From: Paracoccaceae bacterium
GTDB taxonomy: Bacteria; Pseudomonadota; Alphaproteobacteria; Rhodobacterales; Rhodobacteraceae
DNA length: 64,000 nt
Direction of reading: 5' to 3'
NCBI GenBank assembly: GCA_046155885.1
Contig: JBJXFU010000013.1
Location: 1,070 to 65,069, forward strand
The notes under the pieces: model-generated
Seen by the model: only the letters and a program-made list of their open reading frames with translations
What the model was told of the DNA's origin: nothing
Databases searched by the model: none
Part shown: positions 1,524-58,543 of the stretch, piece by piece
How positions within the stretch are numbered: the first letter of the stretch is position 1
Layout: every line of letters begins with the position of its first letter
Made by a program: the position numbers and the translations under genes

Positions 1524-1524
1524 G

Positions 1525-5075: not shown

Positions 5076-5104
5076 TTGACCCGGGGTGCCGGGCGGCTGA
5101 GAAT
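5076..5104 (+). promoter_or_regulatory. Candidate sigma70-type promoter TTGACC-N17-GAGAAT upstream of the DUF3095 gene
   Basis: TTGACC at 5076-5081, a 17-nt spacer and GAGAAT at 5099-5104, all in the divergent intergenic region. This is a motif match only. Confidence 0.3.
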
Positions 5105-5239
5105 ATAGGGACGCGCGGCCGCCTGAGCCAGAGCGGGGCGACCCGCGCCGCCGCGCCGGGGCCGCGCGGCGGCGCACAACTTCTCACACAGGCGTGTGGG
5201 CGCGACGCGCCGGCTGTGCCGATGCGGCCGGGCTGTGCT

Positions 5240-6415: not shown

Positions 6416-6529
6416 GCCGGGCGGAGGCGGCCCGGCGAAGCCCGTGGACGAAGCGGAAGGCAGAGGCTAGGGTCGCCCGAAAGGGATGCGCGCGGCCGAC
6501 AGGCGCGGGGGCGGGGAGCAGCAGGAAAG

Positions 6530-8737: not shown

Positions 8738-9946
8738 ATGACCCACAGTTCGGACAACGCCCGCGTTCTCATGTATAGCCACGACACGTTCGGGCTGGGC
8801 CACCTGCGCCGCTGCCGGACCATCGCGCATTCGCTGGTGCAGGAATTCCGGGGGCTTCAGGTCTATATCATTTCGGGTGCCACCATCGCAGGCGCCTTCG
8901 ACTACCGCTCGCGCGTCGATTTCGTGAAAATTCCGAGCGTCATCAAGCTGAGGAACGGCGAATACACGTCGATGAAGCGGCATATCGACCTGGGCGAGAC
9001 GCTGAAGATGCGCTCGTCGATCATCCGCAATGCCGCCGAGAGCTTCCAGCCCGACATTTTCATCGTCGACAAGGCCCCCCTCGGCCTGAAGGGCGAAGTC
9101 GAGGAGACGCTGCACTACCTGAAGGCGCGGGGCACGCGGCTGGTCCTGGGGATGCGCGACGTGATGGACGCGCCGCATCTGCTGGACGCCGAATGGAAGC
9201 GCAACGACGTGCTGAGGAAGGTCGGCCAGCTTTACGACGATATCTGGGTCTATGGCCCGCGCGACTTCTACGACCCGCTGATCGGGCTCGACGTGCCGCC
9301 GCTGGTCCGTGCGAAGATGAGCTTCGTGGGGTTCCTGCAACGCAATGTCTCGCCGTCCGAGATGCCGGCGGTACGGCCGGACAACGCCTATATCCTGGTC
9401 ACCACCGGGGGCGGCGGCGACGGGGCGGAGCTGGTGCACGACGTGATCGCCGCCTACGAGGCCGACCCCGGGCTGATCCATCCGGTGCTGATCGTGCTGG
9501 GGCCCTACATGTCGGCCAAGCAGCGGCGGAAGCTGATGCGCAAGGCCGAGCGAGTGCCGCAGGCCCGGGTGATCGACTTCGAGAGCCGGATGGAGGAGCT
9601 GGTCGCGGGCGCCGCCGGGGTGGTCGCGATGGGGGGGTACAACACCTTCTGCGAGATCCTGTCCTTCGACCGGCCGGCGCTGATCGTGCCGCGCACGACG
9701 CCGCGCGAGGAGCAGCTGATCCGGGCACGGCGGGCGTCCGAGCTGGGGCTGGTCGATATGCTGCTGCCCGAGGAAAGCGCCGAGCCGCTGCGGCTGGCCG
9801 CCGCGCTGAAGGCATTGCCGGGGCGGCCGCGCCCGACCGAGGCGGGATCGGGCCTGAGGCTCGACGGGCTGAACCACATCAACGAGATCGTCCACGGCTG
9901 GCTTGACGTGAGCGAGGCCGACCAGAGGTCGGCGGCGAATAGCTGA
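8738..9946 (+). CDS. GT-B glycosyltransferase with Glyco_tran_28_C-like (MurG-like) C-terminal domain
   Basis: 402 aa. N-terminal SHDTFGLGHLRRC motif and C-terminal GGYNTFCEILSFDRPALIVPR...REEQLIRA motif. Confidence 0.8.
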   Translation: MTHSSDNARVLMYSHDTFGLGHLRRCRTIAHSLVQEFRGLQVYIISGATIAGAFDYRSRVDFVKIPSVIKLRNGEYTSMKRHIDLGETLKMRSSIIRNAAESFQPDIFIVDKAPLGLKGEVEETLHYLKARGTRLVLGMRDVMDAPHLLDAEWKRNDVLRKVGQLYDDIWVYGPRDFYDPLIGLDVPPLVRAKMSFVGFLQRNVSPSEMPAVRPDNAYILVTTGGGGDGAELVHDVIAAYEADPGLIHPVLIVLGPYMSAKQRRKLMRKAERVPQARVIDFESRMEELVAGAAGVVAMGGYNTFCEILSFDRPALIVPRTTPREEQLIRARRASELGLVDMLLPEESAEPLRLAAALKALPGRPRPTEAGSGLRLDGLNHINEIVHGWLDVSEADQRSAANS

Positions 9947-9948
9947 CC

Positions 9949-11190
9949 GTGGCAGGTCCGGCCGGGCGGCTGGTGATCGTGCTGAAGGGTTATCCGCGCC
10001 TGTCGGAGACCTTCATCGCGCAGGAAATCCTGGGGCTGGAGCGGGCGGGGCTGGACATCGCGCTGGTGTCGCTGCGCCATCCGACCGACCGCAAGCGGCA
10101 TCCGGTGCATGACGAGATCAGGGCGCCGGTGACCTATCTTCCCGAGTACCTGTATCGGGAGCCGTGGCGGGCGCTGCGGGGGCTGGCGCATGCGGCGCGC
10201 CGGCCAGGCTTCGGGCGGGCGTTCCACCGGTTCCTGCGCGACTTGCGGCGCGACCCCTCGCCGAACCGGGTGCGGCGGTTCGGGCAGGCGGCGGTTCTGG
10301 TGCGCGAGATGCCGGCGGGGGCGGACTGGCTTTACGCGCATTTCATCCACACGCCCGCGTCGGTGGCCGCCTATGCGGCGCTGCTGACCGGGCTGCCGTG
10401 GAGCGTGTCGGCCCATGCCAAGGACATCTGGACGGCGCCCGACTGGGACCTGAGCGAGAAGCTGGGCGAGATGCGCTGGGCGGTCACCTGCACGGGGACG
10501 GGCCGGGACCGGCTGGCCGGGCTGTCGGGGGGCAAGGCGCCGGTGCATCTGGTCTATCACGGGCTGGACCTTGCCCGGTTCGGGCCGCCGGGGGGGGACC
10601 GGGCGCCGCGTGACGGGTCCGATCCGGGCGATCCGGTGCGGATCATGAGTGTGGGGCGGGCGGTGGAGAAGAAAGGCTTCGGCACCCTGATCGAGGCGCT
10701 GGGGCGCCTGCCGAAGGGTCTCGCCTGGAGCTTCACGCATGTCGGCGGCGGCGATGTCGCGACACTTCGCGCGCGCGCCGGGGCGCTGGGGATGGGGGAC
10801 AGGGTGGTCTGGCGCGGGGCGCTGGACCAGCCGGAGGTGCTGCGGATTTACCGCGCGGCGGATGTCTTCGCGTTGGCCTGCCGGGTGGCCGGGGACGGCG
10901 ACCGGGACGGGTTGCCGAACGTGCTGGTCGAGGCTTCGAGCCAGGGGTTGGCTTGCGTCAGCACCCGGGTTTCCGCCATTCCGGAACTGATCCGCGACGG
11001 CGAAAACGGGCTTCTGGTGCCGCCGGACGATCCCGGCGCGCTGGCCGGGGCGCTGGCGCGGCTGATCGGTGACCCGGCGCTTCGGTCAGCGCTGGGGCGG
11101 GCCGCCGAGGCGCGGGTGCGCAGCGAATTCGACCATGAGGCCGGGCTGCGCCGGCTGCTGGCGCTGTTCAGGGAAAGCCGGATGCCATGA
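9949..11190 (+). CDS. Glycosyltransferase family 4 (group 1, WcaL-like)
   Basis: 413 aa with a GTG start. LKGYPRLSETFIAQEI N-terminus. The C-terminal part has the E-x7-E region (GLPNVLVEASSQGLACVSTRVSAIPELI). Confidence 0.85.
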   Translation: MAGPAGRLVIVLKGYPRLSETFIAQEILGLERAGLDIALVSLRHPTDRKRHPVHDEIRAPVTYLPEYLYREPWRALRGLAHAARRPGFGRAFHRFLRDLRRDPSPNRVRRFGQAAVLVREMPAGADWLYAHFIHTPASVAAYAALLTGLPWSVSAHAKDIWTAPDWDLSEKLGEMRWAVTCTGTGRDRLAGLSGGKAPVHLVYHGLDLARFGPPGGDRAPRDGSDPGDPVRIMSVGRAVEKKGFGTLIEALGRLPKGLAWSFTHVGGGDVATLRARAGALGMGDRVVWRGALDQPEVLRIYRAADVFALACRVAGDGDRDGLPNVLVEASSQGLACVSTRVSAIPELIRDGENGLLVPPDDPGALAGALARLIGDPALRSALGRAAEARVRSEFDHEAGLRRLLALFRESRMP

Positions 11191-12317
11191 GACCCTCGCC
11201 GCGCGTGTTCTTCTATGTCCAGCACCTGCTCGGGATCGGGCACCTCGCCCGGGCGAGCCGGATCGCGGCGGCGCTGGCCGCGGACGGGTTCGAGGTCACG
11301 GTGGTCACCGGGGGCACTCCGGTTCCGGGGTTTCCCGGCCCGGGGGTGGCGCATGTGGCGCTGCCGGAAATCCGGTCGGACGCGGGGTTTACGGGGTTGG
11401 CCGACGGCGAGGGGCGGCCGCTGACAGATGCCTTCCGGGAGATGCGGCGCGACCTGCTTCTGGCGGCCTTCCGCGCGGCGGCGCCGGATATCGTGGTGAC
11501 CGAGGCCTTCCCCTTCGGCCGCCGTCAGGTGCGTTTCGAGCTTCTGCCGCTGATGGAGGCGATCCACGCCTTGCCCTCTCGCCCGCGCGTGGCGGCATCG
11601 GTGCGCGACATCCTGCAGGAGCGCGCCAAGCCCGGCCGCGACGAGGAAAGCGCGTCGCTGGCGCGGACGTACTACGACTGCATCCTGGTGCATGGCGATC
11701 CGTCCTTCGCGCGGCTGGAAGAGACCTTTCCGCTGGCCGCGGGGCTGGCGGACCTGGTGGCCTATACCGGCCTCGTGGCGGCGCCGCTTCCCCCGCCCGC
11801 CGAAGACCGCTTCGACGTCGTCGTCTCGGCGGGCGGGGGTGCGGTGGGGGGGGCGCTGTTAGCGGCGGCGGCCGAGGCGGCGGGGCGGCTTCCCGGGTCG
11901 GGAAGCTGGGCGCTGATCGGCGGCACCAACCTGCCGCAGGCGGAATACGACGCGCTGGCGGCGCGGCTGCCCGGGAACGCCGCGCTGTTCCGGTTCCGGC
12001 GGGACTTCGTGGGGCTGTTGCAGAATGCGCGGCTATCGGTGTCGCAGGCGGGCTACAACACCGTCTGCGACATCCTCGGCGCGGGATGCCGCAGCGTGCT
12101 GGTGCCCTTCGCCGCGGGCGGCGAGACGGAGCAGGGCGCGCGGGCCGAGCGGCTGGCGGCACTGGGGCTGGCGCGGGTGGTGGAGGAGGCGCGGCTGAGC
12201 GGCCCGGCGATGACCGGGGCGGTGGCGGCAAGCCTTGCCGGGCCGGCGCCGCCACCGTCGCCGCTCGACCTGGGCGGGGCGGCGGCGACGGCGCGGCTGC
12301 TGCGCGAGCTTCTGTGA
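11187..12317 (+). CDS. GT-B glycosyltransferase, paralogous architecture to 8738..9946
   Basis: 376 aa with VQHLLGIGHLARA and AGYNTVCDILGAGCRSVLVPF...ETEQGARA motifs. Its start overlaps the upstream stop by 4 nt. Confidence 0.8.
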   Translation: MRPSPRVFFYVQHLLGIGHLARASRIAAALAADGFEVTVVTGGTPVPGFPGPGVAHVALPEIRSDAGFTGLADGEGRPLTDAFREMRRDLLLAAFRAAAPDIVVTEAFPFGRRQVRFELLPLMEAIHALPSRPRVAASVRDILQERAKPGRDEESASLARTYYDCILVHGDPSFARLEETFPLAAGLADLVAYTGLVAAPLPPPAEDRFDVVVSAGGGAVGGALLAAAAEAAGRLPGSGSWALIGGTNLPQAEYDALAARLPGNAALFRFRRDFVGLLQNARLSVSQAGYNTVCDILGAGCRSVLVPFAAGGETEQGARAERLAALGLARVVEEARLSGPAMTGAVAASLAGPAPPPSPLDLGGAAATARLLRELL

Positions 12318-12449
12318 ACGGATCGGGGCGGACGCACGCAGGAATGGGTGGATTTCCGCCAGCCCTGCGGTAAGGTCGCCGGGGGTCCGGATCGGGGATG
12401 CGGGAAACATGATGACGGGTCCTGCCGGGGTGGGAAAGCTTCGTCCGAC

Positions 12450-15182
12450 ATGTCGGCGCGAGGTGCGCTGAGGGCGATGGAACCCCGGCTTTCGCGATAT
12501 ATCTGGCGGCACACGAGCGCCCAGCAGCTCTGGATCCTGCTGGTCGTGCTTTTGTCGATGGTCCCCTATTTCCTGTCCTTCGACCTGCCCAAGCAGATCG
12601 TCAACGGCCCGATCCAGGGCGACGGTTTCGACACGCCGGACGCCACGCAGCTGTTCATGACGATCGAGTTCGACCTGCCGCTTGTCGGCCATGTGATGCT
12701 GTTCCCGGGCCTGCCGCTGGAACGGATGCCGACGCTTTTCGCGCTGAGCGGAGTGTTCCTGGGCCTCGTCATCATCAACGGGCTCTTCAAGTACTACATC
12801 AACACCTACAAGGGCCGGCTGGGCGAACGGCTTCTGCGGCGCATCCGGTTCGAGCTTGTGGACCGCATCCTGCGGTTTCCGCCGGAGACCTTCAAACGGC
12901 TGAAGGGTGCCGAAATCTCGAGCATGGTGAAGGACGAGGTGGAGCCGCTGGGCGGCTTCACGGGGGATGCCTTCGTGGTGCCCGTGCAGCTTGGCGGGCA
13001 GGCACTGACGGCACTGGTCTTCATCTTTGTGCAGAGCTTCTGGCTGGGCGTCATCACGGCGGCGCTGGTCAGCGTGCAGGCGCTGATCATTCCGCGCCTC
13101 AGGCGGCGGCTTCTGGTGCTGGGCCGGCAGCGGCAGCTTACGGCGCGCGAGCTTGCCGGGCGGGTCAGCGAGATCGTCGAGGGGATCGGCACGATCCGCG
13201 CCTACGACACCTCGAACTTCGAGCGGGCGGACGTGGCGGGGCGGCTGGGGCTGATCTTCAAGATCCGTTACGACATCTACCAGTGGAAGTTCCTGGTGAA
13301 GTTCATCAACAACTTCCTCGCCTCGATCACGCCGTTCCTGTTCTACAGCGTCGGCGGTTATCTGGCGCTGCGCGGCAACCTGGACATCGGGCAGCTGGTT
13401 GCGGTGATCGGGGCCTACAAGGACCTGCCCGGCCCGCTGAACGACCTGATCAGCTGGGACCAGAACCGGCAGGACGTGCAGGTCAAGTACACGCAGGTGG
13501 TCAACCAGTTCGCCATCGACGGAATGATCGACCCGGCGGTTCAGGCGCCGGATCTGTCGGGTGAACGCCAGCCGCTCGACCACCCGCTGGCCACGGTGTC
13601 GCTGGGTGTGGACGACGACAGCGGCAGCACGATCCTCGACCGGGTGAGTGTGCAGATCTCGCCGGGCGAGCTGGTGGCGCTGACCAGTGACACGCCAAGC
13701 GCCGAGATTTTCGCCGAGACGGTGGCGCGCGGCGTCTGGCCGGCCCGGGGCAGGATCACGGTGGGCGAACAGGATGTGCTTTCGCTGCCGGATTCGCGGG
13801 TGGGGCGCGGCATCACCTATCTGGCGCCGGAGCCGTTCCTGTTCTTCGGGACGCTGCGCGACAACCTCGTCTACGGGCTGAAGCACGCGCCCCTGTCGGG
13901 GCCGGAACGCGACGGGGACGCGCTGAAGCGCCATCAGTGGGCGGTGCGCGAGGCGCGGCTGGCGGGAAACCCCGAGCTCGACCTTGCCAGCGACTGGATC
14001 GACTACCGGGCGGCCGGGGCGACCGGGCCTGCGGATTTGTTCCCGGCGCTGGTGCGTGCGCTTGATGCGGCGCTGCTGAGCGACGACGTGATCGACTTCG
14101 CGAAGCGGTCGACGATCGTGCCCGAAGACCAGGCCGAGCTGGCGGCCGACCTGGTCGGGCTTCGGCAGGCGGTGCGGGACGAGCTTGCCGCGCGAAAGCT
14201 CGGCCAGATGATCGCGGCCTTCGAACCGGAAGCCTACAACGGCGAGGCGACGGTGGGCGAGAACCTGCTGTTCGGCAACCCGACCGGCCCCGAGCTGCAG
14301 TTCGAATCGATTGCCGCGAACGCCCACTTCCGCGCCTCGCTCGGGCAGGACCTGGCTTCGGACCTGTTTTCGACGGGCTACCAGATCGCCGAGCAGGCGA
14401 TCGAACTGTTCGCCGGGCTGCCGCCGGACCATCCGTTCTTCGAACAGCTGACCTTCATGTCGTCAGAGGATATCCCGCGCTATCAGAAGCTGTTGCAGGG
14501 GCTGAAGGGACGCGGCTTCGCCGAGGCGACCGAGGCCGAGCGGATCGACATCATCCGCCTGAGCTTTGCCTATATCGAAACGCGCCACCGCTTCGGGCTG
14601 CTGACGCCCGAGCTTCAGTCGCGCATCGTCGCGGCGCGCAGGCGCTTCCATGCGGAGCTTCCCGGGGACCTGCGCGGCGCCATCGAGCCTTACGATCCGG
14701 AACGCTTCATCGCCTCGGCCAATATCCTGGACAACGTGCTGTTCGGCCGCATCAGTCACCGCTACGCCAACGAGGTGGGAACGGTGCACGAGGTGATCCG
14801 CGATCTTTTCCGCACGCGGGGGCTCTACGAACGGGTGTTCTCGGTCGGGCTCGGCTATCATGTCGGGTCTTCGGGCAAGCGGCTGACCTCGGTGCAGCGG
14901 CAGAAACTCGGACTGGCCCGCGCGCTTTTGCGGAAGTCGGAGTACTATGTGTTCAACCGGCCGCTTTCGGCGGCGGATCAGGGCAGCCAGGACCGCGCCA
15001 TGCGCAATGTCATCGACCATGTGCGGCGCGACGGGGCGGATCCGGCGGTGATCTGGGTTCTGTCGAATCCGTCGATGGGGGTGGTCTTCGACCGGGTGAT
15101 CACGTTCAAGGGAGGCACGGTCGCCGACGACCGCAGGCGCATGCATGCCGGTGGCGGCGTTCACGACACGGGTACCGCCTGA
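12450..15182 (+). CDS. ABC type-I-exporter-like protein (6-TM domain + NBD-like domain with all catalytic motifs degenerate and a ~270 aa insertion)
   Basis: Six hydrophobic segments lie in the first ~330 aa. The Walker A position reads ALTSDTPSAEIF, with no GxxGxGK[ST]. The Q-loop reads YLAPEP, the signature reads LTSVQRQK, and Walker B reads YYVFNRPLSAAD. Start is at 12450 (MSARG) or 12477 (MEPRLS). Confidence 0.8.
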   Translation: MSARGALRAMEPRLSRYIWRHTSAQQLWILLVVLLSMVPYFLSFDLPKQIVNGPIQGDGFDTPDATQLFMTIEFDLPLVGHVMLFPGLPLERMPTLFALSGVFLGLVIINGLFKYYINTYKGRLGERLLRRIRFELVDRILRFPPETFKRLKGAEISSMVKDEVEPLGGFTGDAFVVPVQLGGQALTALVFIFVQSFWLGVITAALVSVQALIIPRLRRRLLVLGRQRQLTARELAGRVSEIVEGIGTIRAYDTSNFERADVAGRLGLIFKIRYDIYQWKFLVKFINNFLASITPFLFYSVGGYLALRGNLDIGQLVAVIGAYKDLPGPLNDLISWDQNRQDVQVKYTQVVNQFAIDGMIDPAVQAPDLSGERQPLDHPLATVSLGVDDDSGSTILDRVSVQISPGELVALTSDTPSAEIFAETVARGVWPARGRITVGEQDVLSLPDSRVGRGITYLAPEPFLFFGTLRDNLVYGLKHAPLSGPERDGDALKRHQWAVREARLAGNPELDLASDWIDYRAAGATGPADLFPALVRALDAALLSDDVIDFAKRSTIVPEDQAELAADLVGLRQAVRDELAARKLGQMIAAFEPEAYNGEATVGENLLFGNPTGPELQFESIAANAHFRASLGQDLASDLFSTGYQIAEQAIELFAGLPPDHPFFEQLTFMSSEDIPRYQKLLQGLKGRGFAEATEAERIDIIRLSFAYIETRHRFGLLTPELQSRIVAARRRFHAELPGDLRGAIEPYDPERFIASANILDNVLFGRISHRYANEVGTVHEVIRDLFRTRGLYERVFSVGLGYHVGSSGKRLTSVQRQKLGLARALLRKSEYYVFNRPLSAADQGSQDRAMRNVIDHVRRDGADPAVIWVLSNPSMGVVFDRVITFKGGTVADDRRRMHAGGGVHDTGTA

Positions 15183-15218
15183 GAGGGCGCGAGGCGGGCG
15201 AACGGGAGGTTCGGGCGT

Positions 15219-15683
15219 ATGTTGCTGAAGGACGAAGTGCAGATGTTGCGGCAGATCCCGCTTTTCGCGCGGGTCGAGCCAGCGCGGCTGAAGCTTCTGG
15301 CCTTCGCGTCGGACCGGGTGAGTTATGGCCTGGGCGACGTGATCTTTCACCAGGGCGATACGGGCGATGCGGCCTATGTGATCCTTAACGGGCGCGCCGA
15401 CGTGGTGGCCGAAACGGCGGGCGGGCCCTTGAAGGTGGCCGAGGTGGCGCGGAACGCGATCGTCGGCGAGATCGCGATCCTGTGCGACGTGACCCGCACC
15501 GCGACGGTCAAGGCGGCCACGCCGCTCGAGGCGCTGCGCATCCGCAAGGACGTGTTCCTGAAGATGCTGACCGACTTTCCCGACATCACCATCGAGGTGA
15601 TGCGGGTGCTTGCGTTCCGGCTCAGCCAGACGACGACGGAACTGGCCGAGGCGCGGAGCCAGCTTCCCCCGCGCCCGCACTGA
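15219..15683 (+). CDS. Stand-alone cyclic nucleotide-binding domain protein (Crp/CAP-type cNMP domain, no DNA-binding domain)
   Basis: 154 aa: LRQIPLFARVEPARLKLLAF...GDVIFHQGDTGDAAYVILNGRADV...IVGEIAILCDVTRTATVKA. The phosphate-binding cassette GE...R[TS]A is present. Confidence 0.88.
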   Translation: MLLKDEVQMLRQIPLFARVEPARLKLLAFASDRVSYGLGDVIFHQGDTGDAAYVILNGRADVVAETAGGPLKVAEVARNAIVGEIAILCDVTRTATVKAATPLEALRIRKDVFLKMLTDFPDITIEVMRVLAFRLSQTTTELAEARSQLPPRPH

Positions 15684-17337
15684 CGGCCGCCGGCGCGAGC
15701 GGTGCGCCGGCCAGGTCGAGGCGGACAGGGCCGGCGGGTCCGGAGACGCGGGCGGCAAAGGCCCTGAGAAGCGATGCGAAGCGGGATCGCGGCGAGCCGT
15801 CGCGAAGGAGCGCGCCGGCCCGGGCGGCCAGGGCGAGGTAGAGCGCGACCCGTTCGGGTGGGATTTCGGGAAGGGCGAGCGCGCCTGCCATACGTGCCAG
15901 ATACCAGTCTTCCGCGAAGGTCGCGGCGGAAACGCGGGGGCCGCGATCCGGCCCGGCGGGACCGTCCGGCGGAAAGACGTCGGCAAGGTCGGCGTGGCGT
16001 GCGATCTCTGCCAGATCGGCGGGCCAGTCGCGGCGCAGGTGTCTGCGGGTGACGACCAGCCGGGCGTGGGCGCGCTGCAGCGCGCCATAGGTCCCGGCAG
16101 CGACGAGCGGGGCGATGCGCCCGTCCCGCGTGCGATCCAGCTCTGCCTTGTAGGCCGCACTTGCGGGCGGCGGCAGGGCCAGGTCGTCGAGAGCGACCGT
16201 TTCGATTTCACAGCCGTCTGCGGACAGCGTCACCTGCTTCCATCCGGCCGGCCAGGCCGCGAGCGAGGGGACGGCGATATCGGTGAGCCCGCCCTGCGCG
16301 CCGGAGCGCGTGACGGCGTCCATGTGCAGGTGGCCGGTGAACAGCAGGCTCAGGCCGGCGGAGGCGAGGGTCTGGCCGACCTCCGGCCCGGGGATGCGGC
16401 GGGAGAGCGCGGTCGGGCCGAGGGCCGCCTCTTCCCAGGGGCCGCCGCGCGGGTCGAGCGCGGGGTAGTGCGAGAAGGCGATCAGGCGATTGCCTTCCGC
16501 CTTGGCCCGGCGCGCGACGGATGCGATCCAGTCGATCAGGAAGGGCTTTTGGGCCAGGGCCACGTTCCATCCGGCGTCGGCCGCGTCGGCCACGTCTTCG
16601 CGGTGCAGGTGGCGGCGGGATCGGTCGTGGGGGACGAAGACGTTGGCGTCGAGCATCAGGAACCAGACGCCCGGCGCCGGTTCGCAGAGGTACGAGCAGT
16701 CGGTGGCGTGAAGGGTCGACAGTCCATCCACCGAGCGGACAGGGTAGCGGCGTTCGGCAAGCGCGGGGGCAGGTCCGAACGGGGTTTCCCAGAAGATGTC
16801 GCCGCCGGCCGGCGCGAGCCCGGCTTCTGGCAATGCCGCGAGGGCCGAGGCGGTGCCGCCGCAGAACATCCCCAGGTTGACGACCAGCGTTTCGGCCGAC
16901 GGATCGGTCATCGCGGTATCGCTGGTGACGGCGATATGGCCCGATGCGCCGAGGAACCTGCGGGTCCGGTGCCGCCCGGTTTCGCCGTAGAGGTCGTGGT
17001 TTCCCGGCAGGCCGCGAAAGCGCAGCCCGTGGGATCGGCGATAGCGGTCGAGCAGCCGGCGCAGCCCGGCGAAGGCGATCGCCTGGCCGTCGTCGGTCAC
17101 GTCGCCGAGCAGCACCACATCGCGGATGCCGCGCGCGGCGATGTCGTCCAGGACACGTTCAAGCGCCGCCCCGGTTTCGCTGAACAGGCGCGGCAGGCGC
17201 GAGACCTCGGCGAGGGGGCGCAGCGCCAGGCCGGAGGTCGCGCCGAACGGATGGCCGAAATCGGCGCGCGGATCGTGGAAATGCGCGTCCGCCACCACCG
17301 CGAAGCGGAAGGGAAGGCTGGCGGTGTCGCGCGACAA
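15622..17337 (-). CDS. Metallophosphoesterase (calcineurin-like) with ~250 aa C-terminal extension
   Basis: 571 aa. Motifs FAVVADAHFHD, VLLGDVTDDG, LPGNHDLYGE and FTGHLH are present. Confidence 0.85.
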   Translation of the reverse strand: MSRDTASLPFRFAVVADAHFHDPRADFGHPFGATSGLALRPLAEVSRLPRLFSETGAALERVLDDIAARGIRDVVLLGDVTDDGQAIAFAGLRRLLDRYRRSHGLRFRGLPGNHDLYGETGRHRTRRFLGASGHIAVTSDTAMTDPSAETLVVNLGMFCGGTASALAALPEAGLAPAGGDIFWETPFGPAPALAERRYPVRSVDGLSTLHATDCSYLCEPAPGVWFLMLDANVFVPHDRSRRHLHREDVADAADAGWNVALAQKPFLIDWIASVARRAKAEGNRLIAFSHYPALDPRGGPWEEAALGPTALSRRIPGPEVGQTLASAGLSLLFTGHLHMDAVTRSGAQGGLTDIAVPSLAAWPAGWKQVTLSADGCEIETVALDDLALPPPASAAYKAELDRTRDGRIAPLVAAGTYGALQRAHARLVVTRRHLRRDWPADLAEIARHADLADVFPPDGPAGPDRGPRVSAATFAEDWYLARMAGALALPEIPPERVALYLALAARAGALLRDGSPRSRFASLLRAFAARVSGPAGPVRLDLAGAPLAPAAVSAGAGEAGSAPRPVPSSSG

Positions 17338-17467
17338 TTCTTCCTCCGGTTTGCGTCAGGCAGTCGCCGGGGAAACGGTTCCGGCGCCTTTCCGTGCCTT
17401 CCCGGAAATGCGCTCGCCTCGGCAGCGGCGTTTGACTAGCATCTTCCCGGACCTGTGGGAGGGAAAG

Positions 17468-17494
17468 ATGAAGGCTGGACGTGCGCGCGGCTGA
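17468..17494 (+). other. 8-codon upstream mini-ORF (MKAGRARG) with strong SD, ending 3 nt before the MBL gene start
   Basis: GGGAGGG at 17457-17463, ATG at 17468, and TGA at 17492-17494 followed by CCC-GTG(17498). Confidence 0.25.
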
Positions 17495-17497
17495 CCC

Positions 17498-18367
17498 GTG
17501 GCCTTTGCGCCGCGCGGGTCGGGGCTTTCCGGCGTGACTGCCGACCCGGTCATCCGGCTACGCTTCTGGGGAACGCGGGGCAGTCTTCCGGTGTCGGGCG
17601 AGGCGTTCCGGCGCTTTGGCGGCGCGACGATGTCGATCGAGATGCGCTGCGGGCCGGTCTGCCTTCTGTTCGACGCGGGATCGGGCGTCGGGCCCGCCGG
17701 AAAGGCGCTGGCGGCGGAAGGCGTGACCCGGCTGCATCTGCTGTTCACGCATTGCCACTACGACCACATCCTGGGATTTCCGTTCTTCGCGCCGCTCTAC
17801 AACCCGGCGGCGGAGATCGACTTCTGGTCGGGTCATCTTTTCGGCACGACGACGACGCGCCAGATGATCGGCGACTTCATGGGGCCGCCGTTCTTTCCGG
17901 TGGGGCCGGACGTCTGCCCCGCCAGGCTGCGCTTCCACGACTTCGAGCCCGGGGCCGTGCTTGAACCCGCGCCGGGGCTCAGGCTTCTGACCCGGCGGCT
18001 CAACCATCCGGGCGGGGCGGTGGGGTACCGGGTGGAATGGGGGGGCAAGGTGGTTTGCATCGTCACCGACACCGAACACGAGCCGGGGACGCTCGACCCG
18101 ACGGTGATCGAACTGATCCGGGGCGCCGATCTCTTCATCTATGACGCGAGCTATCTGGATTCCGAAATGGCGCGCTACAAGGGCTTCGGGCATTCGACCT
18201 GGCAGCAGGCGGTTCGTCTTGCCGAGGCGGCGGGGGTGGCGCGGGCGGGGATGATCCACCACGCGCCCTGGCGGACCGATGCCGAGCTTGCGGCGATCGA
18301 GGCCGAGGCGCGGGCGATCCTGCCGGGCGCCTTCGTGACGGCGGACGGGATGACGGCGGAGGCTTGA
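17498..18367 (+). CDS. MBL-fold metallo-hydrolase (possible phosphodiesterase)
   Basis: 289 aa with LRFWGTRGSLP and the HxHxDH motif (THCHYDHILGF). GTG start at 17498; GTG 17534 is an alternative. Confidence 0.85.
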   Translation: MAFAPRGSGLSGVTADPVIRLRFWGTRGSLPVSGEAFRRFGGATMSIEMRCGPVCLLFDAGSGVGPAGKALAAEGVTRLHLLFTHCHYDHILGFPFFAPLYNPAAEIDFWSGHLFGTTTTRQMIGDFMGPPFFPVGPDVCPARLRFHDFEPGAVLEPAPGLRLLTRRLNHPGGAVGYRVEWGGKVVCIVTDTEHEPGTLDPTVIELIRGADLFIYDASYLDSEMARYKGFGHSTWQQAVRLAEAAGVARAGMIHHAPWRTDAELAAIEAEARAILPGAFVTADGMTAEA

Positions 18368-18378
18368 TCTGGCGCCAG

Positions 18379-19149
18379 TCAGGCGGGGGCGGCAAGACCG
18401 GGAAGCGCCGCAGCGGGAAGCCAGCTTGCGCCGGCGCGGCGGGTGGCGACGAAAAGGTCCTCCAGAAAGGCCCAGGCGGCTTCGTCATGCACGAGATGAT
18501 GGGTGAGCAGGCCCGCGACCCCGGCCGCGCCGCCGCGCAGGGCGCCAAGGCGGGCGACGAGTTCGGCCACAAGCCGCGCCGGTTCGCGGCCGCCCCGGGT
18601 GCCGCGCCAGTCGATCAGGTCGGCATGGGTGTTCACGAAGGGCAGCAGCTGGTCCGGAGGTTCCGGCCCGAAGGTGGACAGGGCGCGGAAGCCGAGCGCG
18701 GGAAGCGGCGGCAGGAGGCCCGGGTCGATGCGGTTCCAGGGGGGGACAAGAAGCGGGATGGCCTGGGCGGGGAAGAGGTGCGCGAGGCGGGCACGGCCCC
18801 GCGACAGCTCGCCCAGGATGGTCGCGGCGGGACGTTCGGGGCCGAGTTCGGCGGATTTCCGGCCCGGCGGGGCGTGATTGGCGTGGCGCCAGCCGTGGAC
18901 CGCCACCGAAACGCCCGGCGCGGCGGCGAGGCGGGCGGCGAGGGCTTTGCCCGTCGTGGCGGGGATGACCGCGAGGGTTACCGGAACGGCGGCCGCCGCG
19001 CTGAGCGCGAGCAGCCGGTCGAGCGCGGGGGTGGGCAGGGCCGCGTCGTCGTCGCGCAGCCACAGGGGTGCGGCGCGGCCGGTTTCCGACCAGGCCGCGA
19101 GTTCGGCCGTGAGCGGGGCGAAGGGGTCAGGTTGGGTCAGTCCGCCCAT
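18379..19149 (-). CDS. NodB/DUF2334-like polysaccharide deacetylase family protein
   Basis: 256 aa with LWLRDDDA, VAVHGWRHANH and LVPPWNRI motifs. It overlaps the upstream GT gene by 13 nt. Confidence 0.6.
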   Translation of the reverse strand: MGGLTQPDPFAPLTAELAAWSETGRAAPLWLRDDDAALPTPALDRLLALSAAAAVPVTLAVIPATTGKALAARLAAAPGVSVAVHGWRHANHAPPGRKSAELGPERPAATILGELSRGRARLAHLFPAQAIPLLVPPWNRIDPGLLPPLPALGFRALSTFGPEPPDQLLPFVNTHADLIDWRGTRGGREPARLVAELVARLGALRGGAAGVAGLLTHHLVHDEAAWAFLEDLFVATRRAGASWLPAAALPGLAAPA

Positions 19150-20240
19150 CCCAGTGCCCCGGAGAGGATCTGGCGCAGCCGGGCCGCCGCCGCCCCGATG
19201 CTGTGGCGCGCCAGCACACGCTCATGCGCGGCCCGGCCGAGGCTTTGGCGCAGGGCGGCATCGCGGATCAGCCGGGCGAGCGCCCGGGCGTAAAGTTCCG
19301 GTTCGCGTTCCGGCACCAGAAGCCCGGTTTCGCCGTCCCGCACCACTTCGGGCACGCCGGCGGTGGCCTGGGCGACGACGGGAAGCCCGGCGGCCTGCGC
19401 CTCGAGATAGGCGAGCCCGTAGGCTTCGCCGAAGCCGGGCCAGGCGTAGAGGTCGGCATCCGCCAGCGCCCGGGCGACGGCGGCGGGGTCGGCCAGCCCG
19501 GCCCATCCGACGCGCTCCGCGACCGGGGCGAAGGCGCGCCGGACGGTATCGGCGGCGGGCCCGTCGCCCAGAACCTCCAGCCGCCAGTCGAGGTCGGCGG
19601 GAAGCCGGGCAAGGGCGTCGGCGAGAAGGCTGTAGCTGTCGGCCTTTTCGCCGGCCCGCATCATCGCCACGCTGACCAGCCGGACCGGACCGGTCCGCCC
19701 CGCGCGGTCGGGTGCGGGGAAGCGGCCCGGCTCGACAAAGGGTTCGATCATCGCGGTGCGGGCGCCGGGCAGGGCGAAGTGGATGCCGTCGCGGTCGCGC
19801 CGGGTCAGGCAGAGGTTCACCGCCGCCCGTCCGAGGCCGGCCACGACCTGCCGCTGCGTTTCGGCCCAGATGCTTTCGTTCCGGCGGGCGGAGTAGGAGC
19901 TTTCGGCGGTGACATAGGGCAGGCCGAAGCGGGCGCAGAGCGGCGGGCCGATGAGGTCGGGGGACTTGTAGTAGGGGTGGTAGGCGAACCACAGGTCGGG
20001 CGAGCCCTGGTGCTTCCAGGCGTCGGTCAGCCGGGCGACCTCGGCCTCGGCGCGGGCGGCGATGTCGGCCGCGGCGGCGAAGTCCTGGGGTTCGGGAAGG
20101 CGGGCGCGGAGTTCGGAGGCGAGCGTAACGTCATGGCCGGCAAGGCCGAGCGCCGAGATGAACTGACGCGCCATCAGCCGGTCCCCCGAGGGGACCGGAT
20201 GGCCCGGAGGCTTCAGGGGCGCGTAGAAGGCGATCTTCAT
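19137..20240 (-). CDS. Glycosyltransferase family 4 (group 1)
   Basis: 367 aa with an MKIAFYAPLKPPGHPVPSGDR N-terminus and a C-terminal EAYGLAYLEAQAAGLPVVAQATAGVPEVV E-x7-E motif. Confidence 0.88.
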   Translation of the reverse strand: MKIAFYAPLKPPGHPVPSGDRLMARQFISALGLAGHDVTLASELRARLPEPQDFAAAADIAARAEAEVARLTDAWKHQGSPDLWFAYHPYYKSPDLIGPPLCARFGLPYVTAESSYSARRNESIWAETQRQVVAGLGRAAVNLCLTRRDRDGIHFALPGARTAMIEPFVEPGRFPAPDRAGRTGPVRLVSVAMMRAGEKADSYSLLADALARLPADLDWRLEVLGDGPAADTVRRAFAPVAERVGWAGLADPAAVARALADADLYAWPGFGEAYGLAYLEAQAAGLPVVAQATAGVPEVVRDGETGLLVPEREPELYARALARLIRDAALRQSLGRAAHERVLARHSIGAAAARLRQILSGALGWAD

Positions 20241-20418: not shown

Positions 20419-23400
20419 TCAGCCCTCCCCGGCCAGGAGCGCCGCGTTGCCGCCCGAGGCGGTGGTATCGACGCTCAGGTGCCGTTCGATCCTGAGCCGC
20501 GGTCCCATGTCAGCCTCGGTCAGGAGCGGCAGGATCGGGCCTTGCCGGCGCGCCAGGGCGTGCCGGGCCGAGGCGAGGCTGTCGCGATCCGCCCAGAGGG
20601 CGACGGCGTCGATGCCGCGCAGGGTTTCCAGCGCCGCGTCGGGCAGCGCCCCGTCCACCGTGCCCTCGCCTTTCGCCCCGGGGGCCACGCGGACCGCCGC
20701 GCAGCCGTTGTCGCGCGCGATCCCGGCCTGGCGGTTCGCCGCCTCGGCGGAGGGACCGAGGCAGAGGACAAGGCCGCGCCCGTGTTCGGTCAGGCGGTTC
20801 GATTCGCCGGTGGGTCCGGGCAGTTGGCGGCTGACGAGCGCCGCGCCGGACGGCCGCAGGGCGCGGTCGATCATGCGCTGCACCCCGGCCGGGTCCGCCG
20901 GCGGCGCCGCGCCGGGCGCCGGCCCCTCGATCCGCGCCGCCGCCGCGAAGCGCGCCACGAAGCCCGGTCCGCCGGCCTTGGGCCCGGTGCCGGAGAGCCC
21001 TTCGCCGCCGAAGGGCTGGCTGCCGACAACGGCGCCGATCTGGTTGCGGTTGATGTAGAGGTTGCCGGCCTTCAGCCGGCCGACGACATGGTCGACGCGG
21101 TCGTCGATGCGGCTGTGCATGGCGAAGGTCAGGCCGTAGCCGGTGGCGTTGATCGCGTCGATCACCTTGTCGAGATCGCCCGCCCGGTAGGTGGCGACGT
21201 GCAGGACGGGGCCGAAGACCTCGCGTTCGAGTTGGGCAATGCCCTTCACGCGGATGACCGCGGGCCCGACGAACCAGCCCCGGGCCGGTGCGGCGAGTTC
21301 CGTCAGGACGCGCCCTTCGGCCCTTGCGGCGGCGATGTGGTCCGCGATCCCCTGCCGTGCCGTCTCGCCGATCAGCGGGCCGATGTCGGTTGCCGGGTCC
21401 CAGGGATCACCCAGCGCCAGTTCCTGCATCGCGCCGGAGAGCATCCTGAGCATGCCATCGGCCACGTCCTCTTGCAGGTAGAGCATCCTCAGCGCCGAGC
21501 AGCGCTGGCCGGCCGACTGGAAGGCCGAGGCGACGATGTCGCGCACCGCCTGTTCGGGAAGGGCGGTCGAATCGACGATCATCGCGTTCAGCCCGCCGGT
21601 TTCGGCGATCAGCGGCGCCCAGGGTGCGGCCGAGGCGGCCATCGCGCGGTTGATCCGCTGTGCCGTGGCGGTCGACCCGGTGAAGACGAGGCCGTCGATT
21701 CCTGGGTGCTCCGCCAGCGCCGCGCCGACGGTGCCGCCGCGGCCGGGGACGAGCTGCAGGGCGGCAGGGGGCACGCCCGCTTCGTGCAGGAGGCGCACCG
21801 CCAGCGCCGCCGTCAGGGTTGTCGCCTCGGCCGGTTTGGCAAGGACGGCGTTGCCGGCGGCAAGCGGGGCGGCGACCGATCCGGTGAAGATCGCCAGCGG
21901 GAAGTTCCAGGGCGATATGGCGGCGATCCGGCCCCTTGCCGGGGCGTCGAGATCGAGCGCCCGGGCGGCGTAGTAGCGCAGGAAGTCCACCGCCTCGCGC
22001 AGTTCGGAAACGGCATCGCGGGGGGTCTTGCCGGCTTCGCGGGCGAGAAGCGCGAAGAACTCGCCGGCATTGGCCTCGCAGAGGTCCGAAGCGCGGGTCA
22101 GGGTCGCTGCCCGTTCGGAGGGGGCGGCAGTCCAGGGCCGGGCGGCGGCGACGGCGGCGGCGACGGTTTCGGCCGTCGCCTCGGAGTAGCTTCCCACGAC
22201 ATCGTCAGGATCCGAGGGCGAGCGGACCTCGACTTGCGGGCCTTGCGGGGGTGCCGACCCGGCGACCGCGGGCCCCGCTGTCCAGCGGGCCCGCCGGAAC
22301 GGCGAGCGCGCCGCGTCGAAGGCCGCGAGCCCCGTGGGGTTGGCGATGTCCCAACCGGCCGCGTTCGTCCGCTCGGGCGCGAAAAGCGCCGCGGGCGCCT
22401 TCACCGCGCGGTTCGGGCCGGCCGCAGCGAGCGCCACGAAGGGATCGGCCGCGACCCGGTCGGCGGGCACCGAGGGATCGACGATCTGGTTCACGAAGGA
22501 GCTGTTGGCGCCGTTTTCGAGGAGCCTGCGTACCAGATAGGCCAGAAGGTCGCGGTGCGCCCCGACCGGGGCGTAGATGCGGCAGCGGGTCTTGTTCTGC
22601 GTCAGCACGATGTGATGCAGCCGCTCGCCCATCCCGTGAAGCCGCTGGAACTCGTAGGCCGAGCGGTCGGCCTCGAGGGCGAGGATCGTTGCGACGGTAT
22701 GGGCGTTGTGGGTGGCGAACTGGGGGTAGATGCGGTCGGTCATGCCCAGAAGCCTGCGGGCGTTGCAGATGTAGGCGACGTCGGTGGCGGGTTTGCGGGT
22801 GAAGACCGGGAAATCCGGCAGCCCCTCGACTTGCGCGCGCTTCACCTCGCTGTCCCAGTAGGCGCCCTTGACGAGGCGGACCATGATGCGGCGGCCGAGC
22901 CTGCCGGCAAGCGCGTAGAGCCAGTCGATGACCGGCCCGGCGCGTTTGCCGTAGGCCTGCACGACGACACCGAACCCGTCCCAGCCGGCGAGGGCGGGAT
23001 CCGACAGGACCGCTTCGATGACGTCGAGCGAGAGGTCGAGCCGGTCGGCCTCTTCGGCGTCGATGTTGAAGCCCATGCCGGCGCGGGCGGCCATCCGGGC
23101 GAGTTCGCCGACGCGCGGGACCAGTTCGGCCATGACGCGGGCGCGCTTGGCGGTTTCATAGCGGGGGTGGAGCGCGGAGAGCTTTACCGAGATGCCGGGA
23201 TTGGCGCGGATGTCCGATCCCCGGGCTTCGGCGGCGATGCGGTCGATCGCGTTGGCGTAGGCCTGGTGGTAGGTCTGGGCGTCCCCGGCGGTCATCGCGG
23301 CCTCGCCCAGCATGTCGTAGGAAAAGGTGTAGCCCTCGGCCGCGCGGTCGGCGCCGCGGCGCACCGCCTCGCCGATGGTCTGGCCGAGGACAAACTGCCG

Positions 23401-23892: not shown

Positions 23893-23903
23893 GGTTTCCT
23901 CCG

Positions 23904-23937
23904 CTTCCGGCGCCAGTCTATACAGTCTAGCCGGAAG
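23904..23937. promoter_or_regulatory. Perfect 8-bp inverted repeat CTTCCGGC-N18-GCCGGAAG enclosing AGTCTA-TAC-AGTCTA in the putA/putR divergent region (candidate PutR operator)
   Basis: Read directly from the sequence. It is the only AT-richer patch in the 105-bp divergent intergenic region. Confidence 0.35.
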
Positions 23938-23997
23938 TCGGTGTTCCCGAAGACAGGATTCCTGCGGGCGTTCCGCCCGGAGAACGCGACTTGGAAA

Positions 23998-24478
23998 ATG
24001 ACGACGAGTGCCATGACGGCCGGTCCGCTTGACGAAATCGACCTCGCCATGCTGCGCGAACTGAGCGCGGAGGGGCGGATCACGGAGACGGACCTGGCCG
24101 GGCGGGTGGGGCTTTCGAAGAGCCCGGCGCAGGTGCGGCTGTAGCGGCTGGTGGCCGGGCGCTGTATCCTGGAGTTCCGCGCAGTGCCCGACCCGGCGAG
24201 CTGAGCCTTGACCATGCGGCTTCGTCGAGGTGCGGCTGCGCGACACCACCGAGCGGGCGATCAGGGCGTTCAACGCGGCCGCCCGCGCGGTTCCCGAGAT
24301 CGAGGAATGCCACATGATCGCGGGGGCGTTCGACTATCTGCTGAAAGTCCGGACGCGGGAGGTGCGGCGCTAACGCGAGGTGCCGGGCGGGACGATCTGC
24401 GCGCTGCCGCATGTCGCGACCACCTCGACACATGTGGCGATGGAGGCGGTGAGGGACATCGCGGTGCCGGAGTTCTGA
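23998..24478 (+). pseudogene. putR: Lrp/AsnC-family proline-responsive regulator PutR, inactivated (2 nonsense codons + 2 single-nt deletions)
   Basis: Frame 0 reads MTTSAMTAGPLDEIDLAMLRELSAEGRITETDLAGRVGLSKSPAQVRL*(TAG 24142)RLVAGRCILEFRAVPDPA. A -1 shift near 24197-24201 gives (K)LSLDHAA. A second -1 shift near 24217-24223 gives FVEVRLRDTTERAIRAFNAAARAVPEIEECHMIAGAFDYLLKVRTREVRR*(TAA 24371)REVPGGTICALPHVATTSTHVAMEAVRDIAVPEF*. Confidence 0.85.
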
Positions 24479-58540: not shown

Positions 58541-58543
58541 GAA

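Follow-up and report, generated by a model that had tools for sequence, protein, structure and literature searches.

A conserved alphaproteobacterial locus linking glycosyltransferase genes to cyclic-nucleotide components and a non-catalytic ABC-fold protein

What would a cyclic nucleotide do in a locus of glycosyltransferase (GT) genes, and why should the protein at the centre of that locus be an ABC-exporter-fold membrane protein whose ATP-site motifs have been lost? These questions are raised by positions 1–20240 of a 64,000-nucleotide stretch of DNA from a Paracoccaceae bacterium (GenBank assembly GCA_046155885.1, contig JBJXFU010000013.1, positions 1,070 to 65,069 of the forward strand). 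This whole stretch is called the window here, and coordinates are counted from its first letter. A preliminary description of nine genes at 8738–20240 had proposed a polysaccharide or glycoconjugate pathway whose export or assembly is gated post-translationally by a cyclic nucleotide, and all nine genes are confirmed in their positions, strands, gaps or overlaps and Pfam domains. The reading that we prefer, for which we see about an even chance, is that a cyclic-nucleotide circuit built round a non-catalytic ABC protein gates a GT-made, probably acidic glycoconjugate. It is drawn entirely from comparative genomics and structure prediction.

Conservation and layout of the locus

At the centre of the locus are two plus-strand genes. 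The first (12450–15182) encodes a 910-residue membrane protein with an ABC-exporter fold, referred to here as ABC-like (Pfam ABC_membrane E 2e-23, no ABC_tran match), and the second (15219–15683) encodes a stand-alone protein of 154 residues with a cyclic-nucleotide-binding (CNB) domain (Pfam cNMP_binding E 3e-18). Relatives of ABC-like are encoded in at least 583 species genomes. A species scan, with one genome per species, gave 80 retained loci, to which four were added by exact protein look-up, and the CNB gene lies immediately 3' of the ABC-like gene in all 84 of them.

The presence of the other genes in these loci was scored by tblastn with the window proteins, and 75 of the loci have full 10-kb flanks. 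The three GT genes that precede ABC-like are found in 70 (GT28a), 71 (GT4a) and 65 (GT28b) of these 75, and the genes of an Opp/Gsi-type importer in 59 (ATPase), 60 (binding protein) and 56 (permease). A metallo-beta-lactamase (MBL)-fold hydrolase gene is present in 46 loci and the second GT4 gene, GT4b, in 43; a deacetylase gene occurs in 42, always paired with GT4b. The metallophosphoesterase, DUF3095 and cyclase genes are scored in 24, 19 and 14 loci respectively. Where they occur in these loci, the GT28a orthologues are 66–73% identical, and those of importer permease 1 are 73–87% identical. The low counts for the cyclase and DUF3095 are in part an artefact of the 10-kb flanks. An orthologous cyclase gene lies just upstream of the importer in every locus that was fetched with 14–20 kb, namely those of Sinorhizobium meliloti pSymB, Rhizobium etli CIAT 652 pA, R. 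leguminosarum pSK02 and Phyllobacterium zundukense, and a DUF3095 gene lies a few kilobases further out in the R. etli, R. leguminosarum and Phyllobacterium loci.

The gene set recurs in S. meliloti pSymB, R. etli, R. leguminosarum, Phyllobacterium, Cypionkella and Azospirillum. In Cypionkella the genes are contiguous in the order DUF3095, ABC-like, CNB, MBL, cyclase, ferredoxin-fused cyclase and metallophosphoesterase. The locus of Azospirillum sp. B510 is more diverged, with about 31% identity for ABC-like, 46–55% for the importer, and 49%, 56%, 43% and 40% for GT28a, GT4a, GT4b and GT28b. The locus is near-universal within whole genera, on chromids and chromosomes, with about 60% identity across orders, and the ABC-like gene is found on 262 plasmids or chromids in PLSDB. 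The taxa that carry it are plant- and alga-associated. Comparative synteny had been chosen beforehand as the test of the proposed link, and the set is conserved across Rhizobiales, Rhodobacterales and Rhodospirillales: the GT genes are evolutionarily wired to the cyclic-nucleotide components.

In the window the locus consists of two operons that diverge from a region of about 216 nt. The minus-strand operon encodes the cyclase, the binding protein and two permeases in that order, and the plus-strand operon encodes DUF3095, the importer ATPase, three GTs, ABC-like and CNB. The importer subunits are divided over both operons, each of which has a cyclase-type gene at its head. The preliminary description had placed the two cyclase-type genes upstream of the glycan genes; they are present at 3692–5035 and 5252–6415 but belong inside the locus rather than merely near it, because the importer ATPase gene (6530–8422) lies between them and the GTs and the genes for the binding protein and permeases (1–3522) follow the cyclase. 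The co-conserved importer itself had been overlooked. The plus-strand genes of 8738–15683 are separated by 2, -4, 132 and 36 nt. The CNB gene and the minus-strand metallophosphoesterase gene are convergent, and their 3' ends overlap by 62 nt (15622–15683); in Pararhizobium gei the same two genes do not overlap and are 45 nt apart. The right boundary of the locus is PutA (20419–24315), which is found in none of the 75 full loci.

The G+C content of the window is 65–74%, and real genes are marked by a third-position G+C content (GC3) of 0.83–0.93; the nine genes of 8738–20240 have GC3 values of 0.83–0.90, the coding pattern of this genome. Open reading frames are present in the 132-, 160- and 315-nt gaps, and none there has the coding G+C pattern of an additional small gene. 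An Rfam scan of the whole window found no riboswitch or other RNA family. In a scan for promoters and terminators the only site exceeding the shuffled expectation is sigma-70-like (5076–5104), inside the divergent promoter region of the cyclase and DUF3095. The same 216-nt intergenic region contains a perfect short palindrome, TCACAC-AGGC-GTGTG, at 5184–5198, whose half-sites are in the opposite order to those of a CRP box. Type II toxin-antitoxin pairs (YoeB/YefM and VapC/AbrB-like) are inserted between locus genes on R. leguminosarum and Phyllobacterium plasmids (6210–6735 in locus L091; 9337–9991 and 30967–31490 in L092).

The ABC-like protein and its CNB partner

When 1.84 billion cluster representatives were searched with a profile, 1,568 matched ABC-like at E <= 1e-30, the best 150 of them all with scores above 517 bits, and the family was aligned as 132 representatives of 50%-identity clusters. 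In the window protein the Walker A, signature and Walker B positions read TSDTPSAEI, LTSVQ and YYVFNR, and the Q-loop Gln and the H-loop His are missing. The loss runs through the family. The canonical Walker A K[ST] is kept in 13 of the 132 representatives and the Walker B D-E in 5; both are present together in 3 and neither is present in 117, which bears out family-wide the earlier designation 'pseudo-ABC'. Gln is rare at the Q-loop position, the common residues at the H-loop position do not include His, and the signature is reduced from LSGGQ to L-[STP]-x-x-Q. As judged from these motifs, the family lacks what a functional ABC ATPase carries at the Walker A, at the Walker B, and at the Q-loop, H-loop and signature. 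Even between orders, close family members are nevertheless about 60% identical, and both the membrane domain and the nucleotide-binding domain (NBD) region contain long motifs that do not vary.

The AlphaFold2 model of ABC-like has a mean confidence (pLDDT) of 82, rising above 90 across most of the C-terminal half. Foldseek matches the model to TmrAB, TM287/288, MsbA and PCAT1 at 11–14% identity, with probability 1.00 for the first three, and the sequence searches agree. The predicted structure is that of a type IV exporter, comprising a six-helix transmembrane domain (TMD, PF00664) and an NBD fold. The most conserved motif of the family, LPKQIVNGPIQG, is placed by the model at the periplasmic end of the first transmembrane helix, beside a small loop predicted as a beta-hairpin.

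Between the Walker A region and the signature the NBD contains a mostly helical insertion of about 300 residues. The insertion holds two extra copies of the Q-loop segment, so that this segment is triplicated; the copies align with one another in hhalign at E 2e-6 and 1.5e-4 and share the pattern (E/D)P..(F/Y)....h..N(L/V)L(F/Y)G. In the window protein the three Q-loop and helical-subdomain segments are FFGTLRDNLVYG, EATVGENLLFG and ANILDNVLFG (window 13812–14940, residues about 455–830). The insertion also contains the invariant motifs YGLKHAP, DWIDY, LPPDHPFF and EPRHRFGLL and is predicted with pLDDT above 90. None of the solved ABC structures found has a comparable insertion. Public databases label ABC-like proteins as 'multidrug ABC transporter ATP-binding protein' or 'LagD', and neither label fits the domain content.

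The partnership with CNB, proposed in the preliminary description from gene order, gains support from gene fusion. A C-terminal CNB domain is fused to ABC-like in 43 of the 132 representatives, which are all those of at least 980 residues, and it is homologous over its full length to the stand-alone CNB protein (E 1e-37 to 1e-45); the 89 shorter representatives bear no such domain. Pfam cNMP_binding is found at the C-terminus of the proteins from Azospirillum (1047 residues), Ruegeria TM1040 (989 residues) and Hyphomicrobiales UR115 (1048 residues). On a plasmid of UR115 (locus L090) the fused gene and a cyclase orthologue form an isolated pair among unrelated genes, and cyclase, ABC-like and CNB therefore make up the tightest core of the system.

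The phosphate-binding cassette GEIAILC...RTATV is invariant or nearly so in 85 stand-alone orthologues. In the window protein it reads GEIAILCDVTRTATV, which follows the pattern G-E-x-A...R-[ST]-A, and its G, E, R and A are among the (near-)invariant positions. In the fused copies the G is kept in 41, the E in 31 and the R in 40 of 43. By these residues the CNB protein carries an intact cassette of the CAP/PKA-R type for binding a cyclic mononucleotide (cNMP). Among solved structures it is closest to the CNB domains of PKG and PKA-R.

The CNB protein is not a CRP/FNR transcription factor. It has the CNB domain of these regulators but ends at 154 residues without the winged helix-turn-helix (HTH); searches gave no HTH match and no DNA-binding domain, and alignments to CRP cover only CRP residues 5–145 or thereabouts. 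Several public names for the protein are misleading, including 'Crp/Fnr family transcriptional regulator', 'cAMP-dependent protein kinase' (UniProt Q92VD3) and 'putative transcriptional regulator'; misnamed examples are found at 16836–17300 of the S. meliloti pSymB locus (L085) and at 18815–19282 of locus L087.

Signalling enzymes, glycan enzymes and importer

The first gene of the minus-strand operon (3692–5035, minus strand, GTG start at 5035 inferred) encodes a class III nucleotidyl cyclase, which matches Guanylate_cyc (PF00211) with 32.9 bits against a cut-off of 21.9. The motifs MGDLRDST and VGDGF, which supply the metal-binding Asp residues of class III enzymes, are visible in the alignment. 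The protein is 59% identical to the cyclase beside the same cluster on S. meliloti pSymB and 36% identical to the orthologue directly upstream of the fused gene of UR115. These identities extend to its conserved N-terminal domain of about 210 residues (59% and 36% again), which carries an LSFSxLHPLY motif and has no Pfam or NCBIfam match; presumably the circuit receives its sensory signal there. The Cypionkella locus (L004, 15902–17605) and that of Rhizobium sp. ACO-34A (L093, 24242–25942) encode a further class III cyclase with a 2Fe-2S ferredoxin domain fused to it, a fusion that suggests redox state as an input to this circuit.

The plus-strand operon begins with a gene for a DUF3095 protein of 387 residues (5252–6415, plus strand; Pfam DUF3095 E 4e-121; a 100% match to the annotated P0167). 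The preliminary description had called it cyclase-like, and structure prediction supports this. The AlphaFold2 model has a pLDDT of 87.6, and its top Foldseek matches are the single-chain C1-C2 soluble domains of the mammalian adenylyl cyclases AC9 and AC8 (probability 1.00 and 0.99, TM-score 0.40–0.43), with further matches to the double-palm protein Cas10/Csm1 and to the bacterial class III cyclase Rv1900c. The N-terminal half is in register with the metal motifs of the neighbouring cyclase through ADVVGST and GGDGA; D41 and G83-D84-G85, which align with these motifs, are invariant. The hhalign comparison of DUF3095 with the cyclase is weak (E 0.0025–0.013, probability 3–12%). A sequence search of the PDB with DUF3095 found no solved relative, and no internal duplication is detectable by sequence. 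The model suggests that DUF3095 is probably a single-chain, two-palm nucleotide cyclase-like enzyme, and if so this would be a new architecture for a bacterial cyclase.

Two hydrolases had been put forward as phosphodiesterases, and the evidence on the two differs. The large metallophosphoesterase (15622–17337, minus strand; Pfam Metallophos E 6e-7) keeps all five motifs (D-x-H, GD, GNH[DE], H and GHxH) in 26 orthologues, motifs that are common to all metallophosphoesterases. A family profile searched against the PDB found as solved relatives only Lmo2642 (E 1.3e-15), Rv0805 (0.004) and Icc (0.006), and we take Lmo2642 and Rv0805 to be cyclic-nucleotide phosphodiesterases. The protein is thus some way supported as a candidate class III-type cNMP phosphodiesterase. 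A PlcP-type role in lipid remodelling was set aside, the solved relatives found all being cNMP phosphodiesterases.

The MBL-fold protein (17498–18367, plus strand; Pfam Lactamase_B_2 E 2e-17) belongs to the RNase Z/ElaC-like branch. Its profile finds ELAC1 (9e-13) and RNase Z (2.5e-12) as the closest solved structures, with no known cNMP phosphodiesterase nearer, and it is therefore described as a phosphodiesterase-type hydrolase. Membership of a cNMP phosphodiesterase family was considered and dropped, both for the class II enzymes (there is no PF02112 match) and for the NCBIfam cNMP-degrading family NF041851 (E 1e-14, 54.5 bits against a cut-off of 400). HxHxDH and the other metal ligands are invariant; the intact site makes phosphodiesterase activity likely, as far as sequence can tell. 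The MBL gene lies directly 3' of CNB in many loci, and this gene context supports a role in signalling.

The GTs of the locus are soluble GT-B enzymes with no transmembrane segment. GT28a (8738–9946, plus strand) and GT28b (11187–12317, plus strand) have a GT28-type C-terminal domain (Pfam Glyco_tran_28_C E 6e-9, 36.5 bits against a cut-off of 22, and E 4e-9, 37.3 bits). Between them lies GT4a (9949–11190, plus strand; Pfam Glyco_trans_1_4 E 3e-29; NCBIfam EpsE 4e-39, below cut-off). The earlier term 'MurG-like' holds for the two GT28-type enzymes at the level of the superfamily, but they are not MurG: their NCBIfam murG scores are 17.4 and 31 bits against a cut-off of 250, and only the GT28 C-terminal domain is common. 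A PDB sequence search with GT28a found only CalG2, at E 0.03. Beyond the MBL gene, GT4b (19137–20240, minus strand; Pfam Glyco_trans_1_4 E 2e-25) has a translational overlap with the gene of a carbohydrate esterase 4 (CE4)-like polysaccharide deacetylase family protein (18379–19149, minus strand; Pfam Polysacc_deac_1 E 9e-4, below cut-off). The deacetylase family keeps the CE4-like DD and HxxH motifs as WLRDDDA, HGWxH and PPWNR.

The importer comprises permease 2 (1–534, minus strand), which is OppC-like and runs off the window edge (Pfam OppC_N E 2e-14; it has the position of the second permease in related loci), the OppB/GsiC-like permease 1 (525–1523, minus strand; Pfam BPD_transp_1 E 5e-27 and BPD_transp_1_N; NCBIfam Opp4B 2.5e-69, below cut-off), a family-5 periplasmic binding protein of about 70 kDa (1525–3522, minus strand; Pfam SBP_bac_5 E 2e-50) and a 630-residue ATPase of the GsiA/YejF/Opp type, in which a pair of ABC domains is fused (6530–8422, plus strand; Pfam ABC_tran twice, E 2e-56, and oligo_HPY; NCBIfam GsiA 2e-167, below cut-off). 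Among solved proteins, the pectin- and oligogalacturonide-binding SPH1118 from Sphingomonas sp. A1 is the best match to the binding protein (E 6e-63, residues 76–645), followed by binders of alpha-galactosides and chitin oligosaccharides. SPH1118 is annotated as oligopeptide-binding, but binds pectin and unsaturated trigalacturonate and hardly binds peptides, and it serves both uptake and chemotaxis (PMC9314435, PMC7055323).

Genes that vary among the loci point to uronic acids. A nucleotide-sugar 6-dehydrogenase gene lies within 10 kb in 14 of the 84 loci, and such genes are also seen, extended loci included, in S. meliloti, R. etli, R. leguminosarum, Phyllobacterium, Cypionkella and ACO-34A. 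A polysaccharide lyase gene (PF14099) lies within 10 kb in nine, and it adjoins the dehydrogenase gene in S. meliloti (L085, 2117–3097), Phyllobacterium (L092, 8384–9328) and ACO-34A (L093, 26108–27052); a PDB search with the S. meliloti lyase gave nothing useful. Rhizobium sp. ACO-34A also has an NAD-dependent epimerase annotated as UDP-glucuronate epimerase. The glycan is probably acidic. S. meliloti makes and cleaves glucuronan. The genes for synthesis of its beta-1,4-glucuronan are stated to be unknown (PMC10180729), and the locus is a candidate for them, as a lead only.

A second glycan-related region of the window, at 54091–60798, contains genes for a sulfotransferase (54091–55368, minus strand), a UDP-GlcNAc 2-epimerase (55644–56912, plus strand) and a DUF3473 deacetylase-like domain fused to a GT2 (56885–58540, plus strand), with further open reading frames.

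Proposed mechanism, rival readings and known systems

In the preferred reading the class III cyclase, and probably DUF3095 as well, would produce a cyclic nucleotide, which would be bound by the CNB domain, a separate 154-residue protein in the window and the C-terminal domain of ABC-like elsewhere. The CNB domain would dock on, or be tethered to, the dead, insertion-bearing NBD of the exporter-fold protein, whose conformation would then be set by ligand binding instead of ATP hydrolysis. The metallophosphoesterase and the MBL hydrolase would remove the signal. As output, a glycoconjugate synthesised by the three or four GT-B enzymes and the deacetylase would be controlled at the membrane, most likely through gated translocation or release of a glycan that probably contains uronic acid, and the Opp/Gsi-type importer would take back oligosaccharide fragments of that glycan. 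The analysis shows the gene content and its conservation, the fusion, the loss of the ATPase motifs, the intact cassette of the CNB domain and the assigned folds; from these we infer the nucleotide that is made, the regulation of ABC-like by CNB, the movement of the glycan by ABC-like and the identity of the glycan.

Several observations weigh against this reading. Although the link of the GTs to cNMP genes stood, the polysaccharide of the preliminary description is not a given. Among the Pfam domains of the 15 locus genes there is no initiating phosphoglycosyltransferase, no polymerase or Wzx/Wzy flippase, no GT2 synthase and no PCP/OPX outer-membrane export gene, and this is therefore not a canonical polysaccharide assembly locus. 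The window itself has no sugar dehydrogenase and no lyase. In the loci of Rhizobium and Sinorhizobium no gene for the metallophosphoesterase, MBL protein, deacetylase or GT4b lies within 10 kb, the MBL protein stands nearest to RNase Z, and the alignment of DUF3095 with the cyclase is weak. In UR115 the core is found with neither GTs nor importer beside it, and in Ruegeria the importer is present but a GT is missing for 12 kb around; the job of ABC-like may therefore not be specific to glycans. Lastly, a transporter with no energy source could facilitate or gate at best.

The last two points also speak for the main rival, in which ABC-like and CNB form a signalling device, a 'transceptor' or a regulatory subunit like SUR, and not a conduit. 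Such a device would combine intracellular cNMP with an input from the membrane or periplasm, for which the liganded binding protein is a possibility, and would regulate the importer, the GTs or the cyclase itself. The family-wide loss of ATP-site motifs makes active transport unlikely, and the most conserved motif of ABC-like is periplasmic. The importer co-evolves with ABC-like even where no GTs are adjacent, as in Ruegeria, and its binding protein has as closest solved relative a protein that both feeds uptake and signals chemotaxis. The minimal module, cyclase plus ABC-like-CNB, has no cargo-making genes nearby. However, the six-helix exporter TMD is complete and strongly conserved, which would go beyond the needs of a sensor anchor; over 85% of close loci have adjacent GTs; and no output domain (kinase, HTH or GGDEF) is present. 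We regard the signalling device as possible, but doubt it on balance.

The similarity to SPH1118, which extends over the full length of the binding protein, with more distant similarity to alpha-galactoside and chitin-oligosaccharide binders, also bears on a second alternative. Here the locus would mainly sense and take up an external acidic oligosaccharide, such as fragments of plant pectin or algal uronides; in response, the GTs and deacetylase would recycle the sugars or remodel the envelope of the cell itself, and cNMP would signal inside the cell that substrate is available. The plant- and alga-associated taxa and the PF14099 lyase genes of several loci fit this. On the other hand, no uronate catabolic genes (isomerase, KDG kinase or aldolase) are present in any locus inspected, the lyase is absent from the window and from most of the other loci, and the nucleotide-sugar 6-dehydrogenases and GTs point to synthesis. 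This makes mainly uptake unlikely.

A membrane protein with a fused CNB domain also resembles the effector logic of Pycsar, and an anti-phage system of the Pycsar or CBASS kind, in which infection triggers the cyclase and a CNB membrane effector kills the cell, was considered. PADLOC matches the cyclase to PycC (E 9e-15) and the CNB protein to the CNB domain of Pycsar effectors (E 5e-13), and Pfam gives a GT4-conflict match of 34 bits for GT4b. These PADLOC matches are only generic, at the level of domains, and the defence reading is therefore rejected: no PADLOC model matches ABC-like, DUF3095 or the GTs, the locus always travels with metabolic and transport genes, and its distribution is syntenic and core-like, unlike that of patchy defence islands. 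We consider it very improbable. Chance juxtaposition of an ordinary GT operon and unrelated signalling genes in this metagenome-assembled genome, for which nothing speaks but the general abundance of cyclases in alphaproteobacteria, is already refuted by the 84 of 84 ABC-like/CNB adjacencies, the conservation across three orders, the gene fusions and the division of the importer between two cyclase-led operons, and is left with next to no probability.

If the proposed gating of ABC-like by CNB is true, it would be an ABC-fold switch driven by a cyclic nucleotide instead of ATP, a new form of control of inner-membrane transport or signalling. A larger proposition joins three parts, namely that cNMP replaces ATP as the gating ligand of an ABC protein, that a DUF3095 cyclase feeds it, and that the locus underlies an acidic rhizobial exopolysaccharide or oligosaccharide cycle that includes trimming by the lyase and re-uptake (candidate, the S. 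meliloti beta-1,4-glucuronan; PMC10180729); we offer it tentatively, as rather improbable in its entirety. The locus is present in the best-studied rhizobia, on S. meliloti pSymB and on plasmids of R. leguminosarum and R. etli, and a function could follow from it for the uncharacterised DUF3095 family and for one of the rhizobial cyclases, dozens of which are orphans. An S. meliloti strain free of cyclases exists (PMC13001267), and the system is tractable in genetically amenable strains. It has been systematically mis-annotated, as 'Crp/Fnr regulator', 'cAMP-dependent protein kinase', 'multidrug ABC transporter' and 'oligopeptide transporter'. In the literature searched we found no description of the locus, of DUF3095 or of CNB-fused non-catalytic ABC proteins; the only trace of the locus is in the annotation of R. 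etli CIAT 652, where GT28a and GT4a are named redA and redB.

Known systems resemble the locus in part. SPH1118 (about 69 kDa), which has an Opp-annotated importer, is like the window binding protein in being large and of family 5, matching over the full length (PMC9314435, PMC7055323), but it serves chemotaxis towards and assimilation of an external polymer, and no GT, cyclase or CNB context is reported for it. In S. meliloti the cAMP-Clr regulon (CyaD1/D2/K and Clr) places exopolysaccharide-related genes under cAMP control (PMC5498481). Clr, however, binds DNA as a transcription factor and has its targets at other loci (exo; nodP2-smb21248), whereas the CNB protein of the locus has no HTH, and in the parts of that paper available to us no gene of this cluster is among the Clr regulon genes listed (PMC5498481).

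Type IV (B-family) exporters, including MsbA, NdvA/ChvA, TmrAB, TM287/288 and PCAT1, have the same order of a six-helix TMD followed by an NBD, and several of them move lipids, lipid-linked glycans or glucans. ABC-like differs from them in its structural-alignment identity of only 11–14%, its lost ATP motifs, its insertion of about 300 residues and its obligatory CNB partner or fusion. A CNB module is likewise genomically tied to an exporter-type ABC protein in the cyc_nuc_ocin (TIGR03896) and NHLP-type (TIGR03796/TIGR03797) systems. The window CNB protein matches TIGR03896 at E 9e-12 (45 bits against a cut-off of 161), and ABC-like matches TIGR03796 and TIGR03797 at 2e-22 and 2e-15 (79 bits against a cut-off of 853). 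These bacteriocin-type and NHLP systems have catalytic NBDs, peptidase domains and peptide cargo, whereas the locus has dead NBDs, GT genes and an oligosaccharide-type importer.

CFTR and SUR (ABCC7/8/9) are ABC-fold proteins that act as a gated channel or a regulatory subunit and have degenerate ATP sites, and CFTR is under cAMP control. They are, however, eukaryotic full transporters that still bind ATP, and cAMP acts on CFTR through phosphorylation by PKA, with no directly attached CNB domain. In secretion gated by c-di-GMP (BcsA-PilZ, Alg44, PelD and PgaCD) a cyclic nucleotide acts post-translationally on an inner-membrane glycan-handling protein. The locus differs in the class of messenger, since a CNB/CAP-type receptor implies a cyclic mononucleotide, and in the fold of the receptor; it has no GT2 processive synthase, and the target has an ABC fold. 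If the proposed mechanism holds, it would be a cyclic-mononucleotide counterpart to the c-di-GMP control of glycan secretion. Control of membrane glycan handling by a cyclic nucleotide has its precedents in the c-di-GMP systems, and there is a realistic chance that the mechanism here is a new one.

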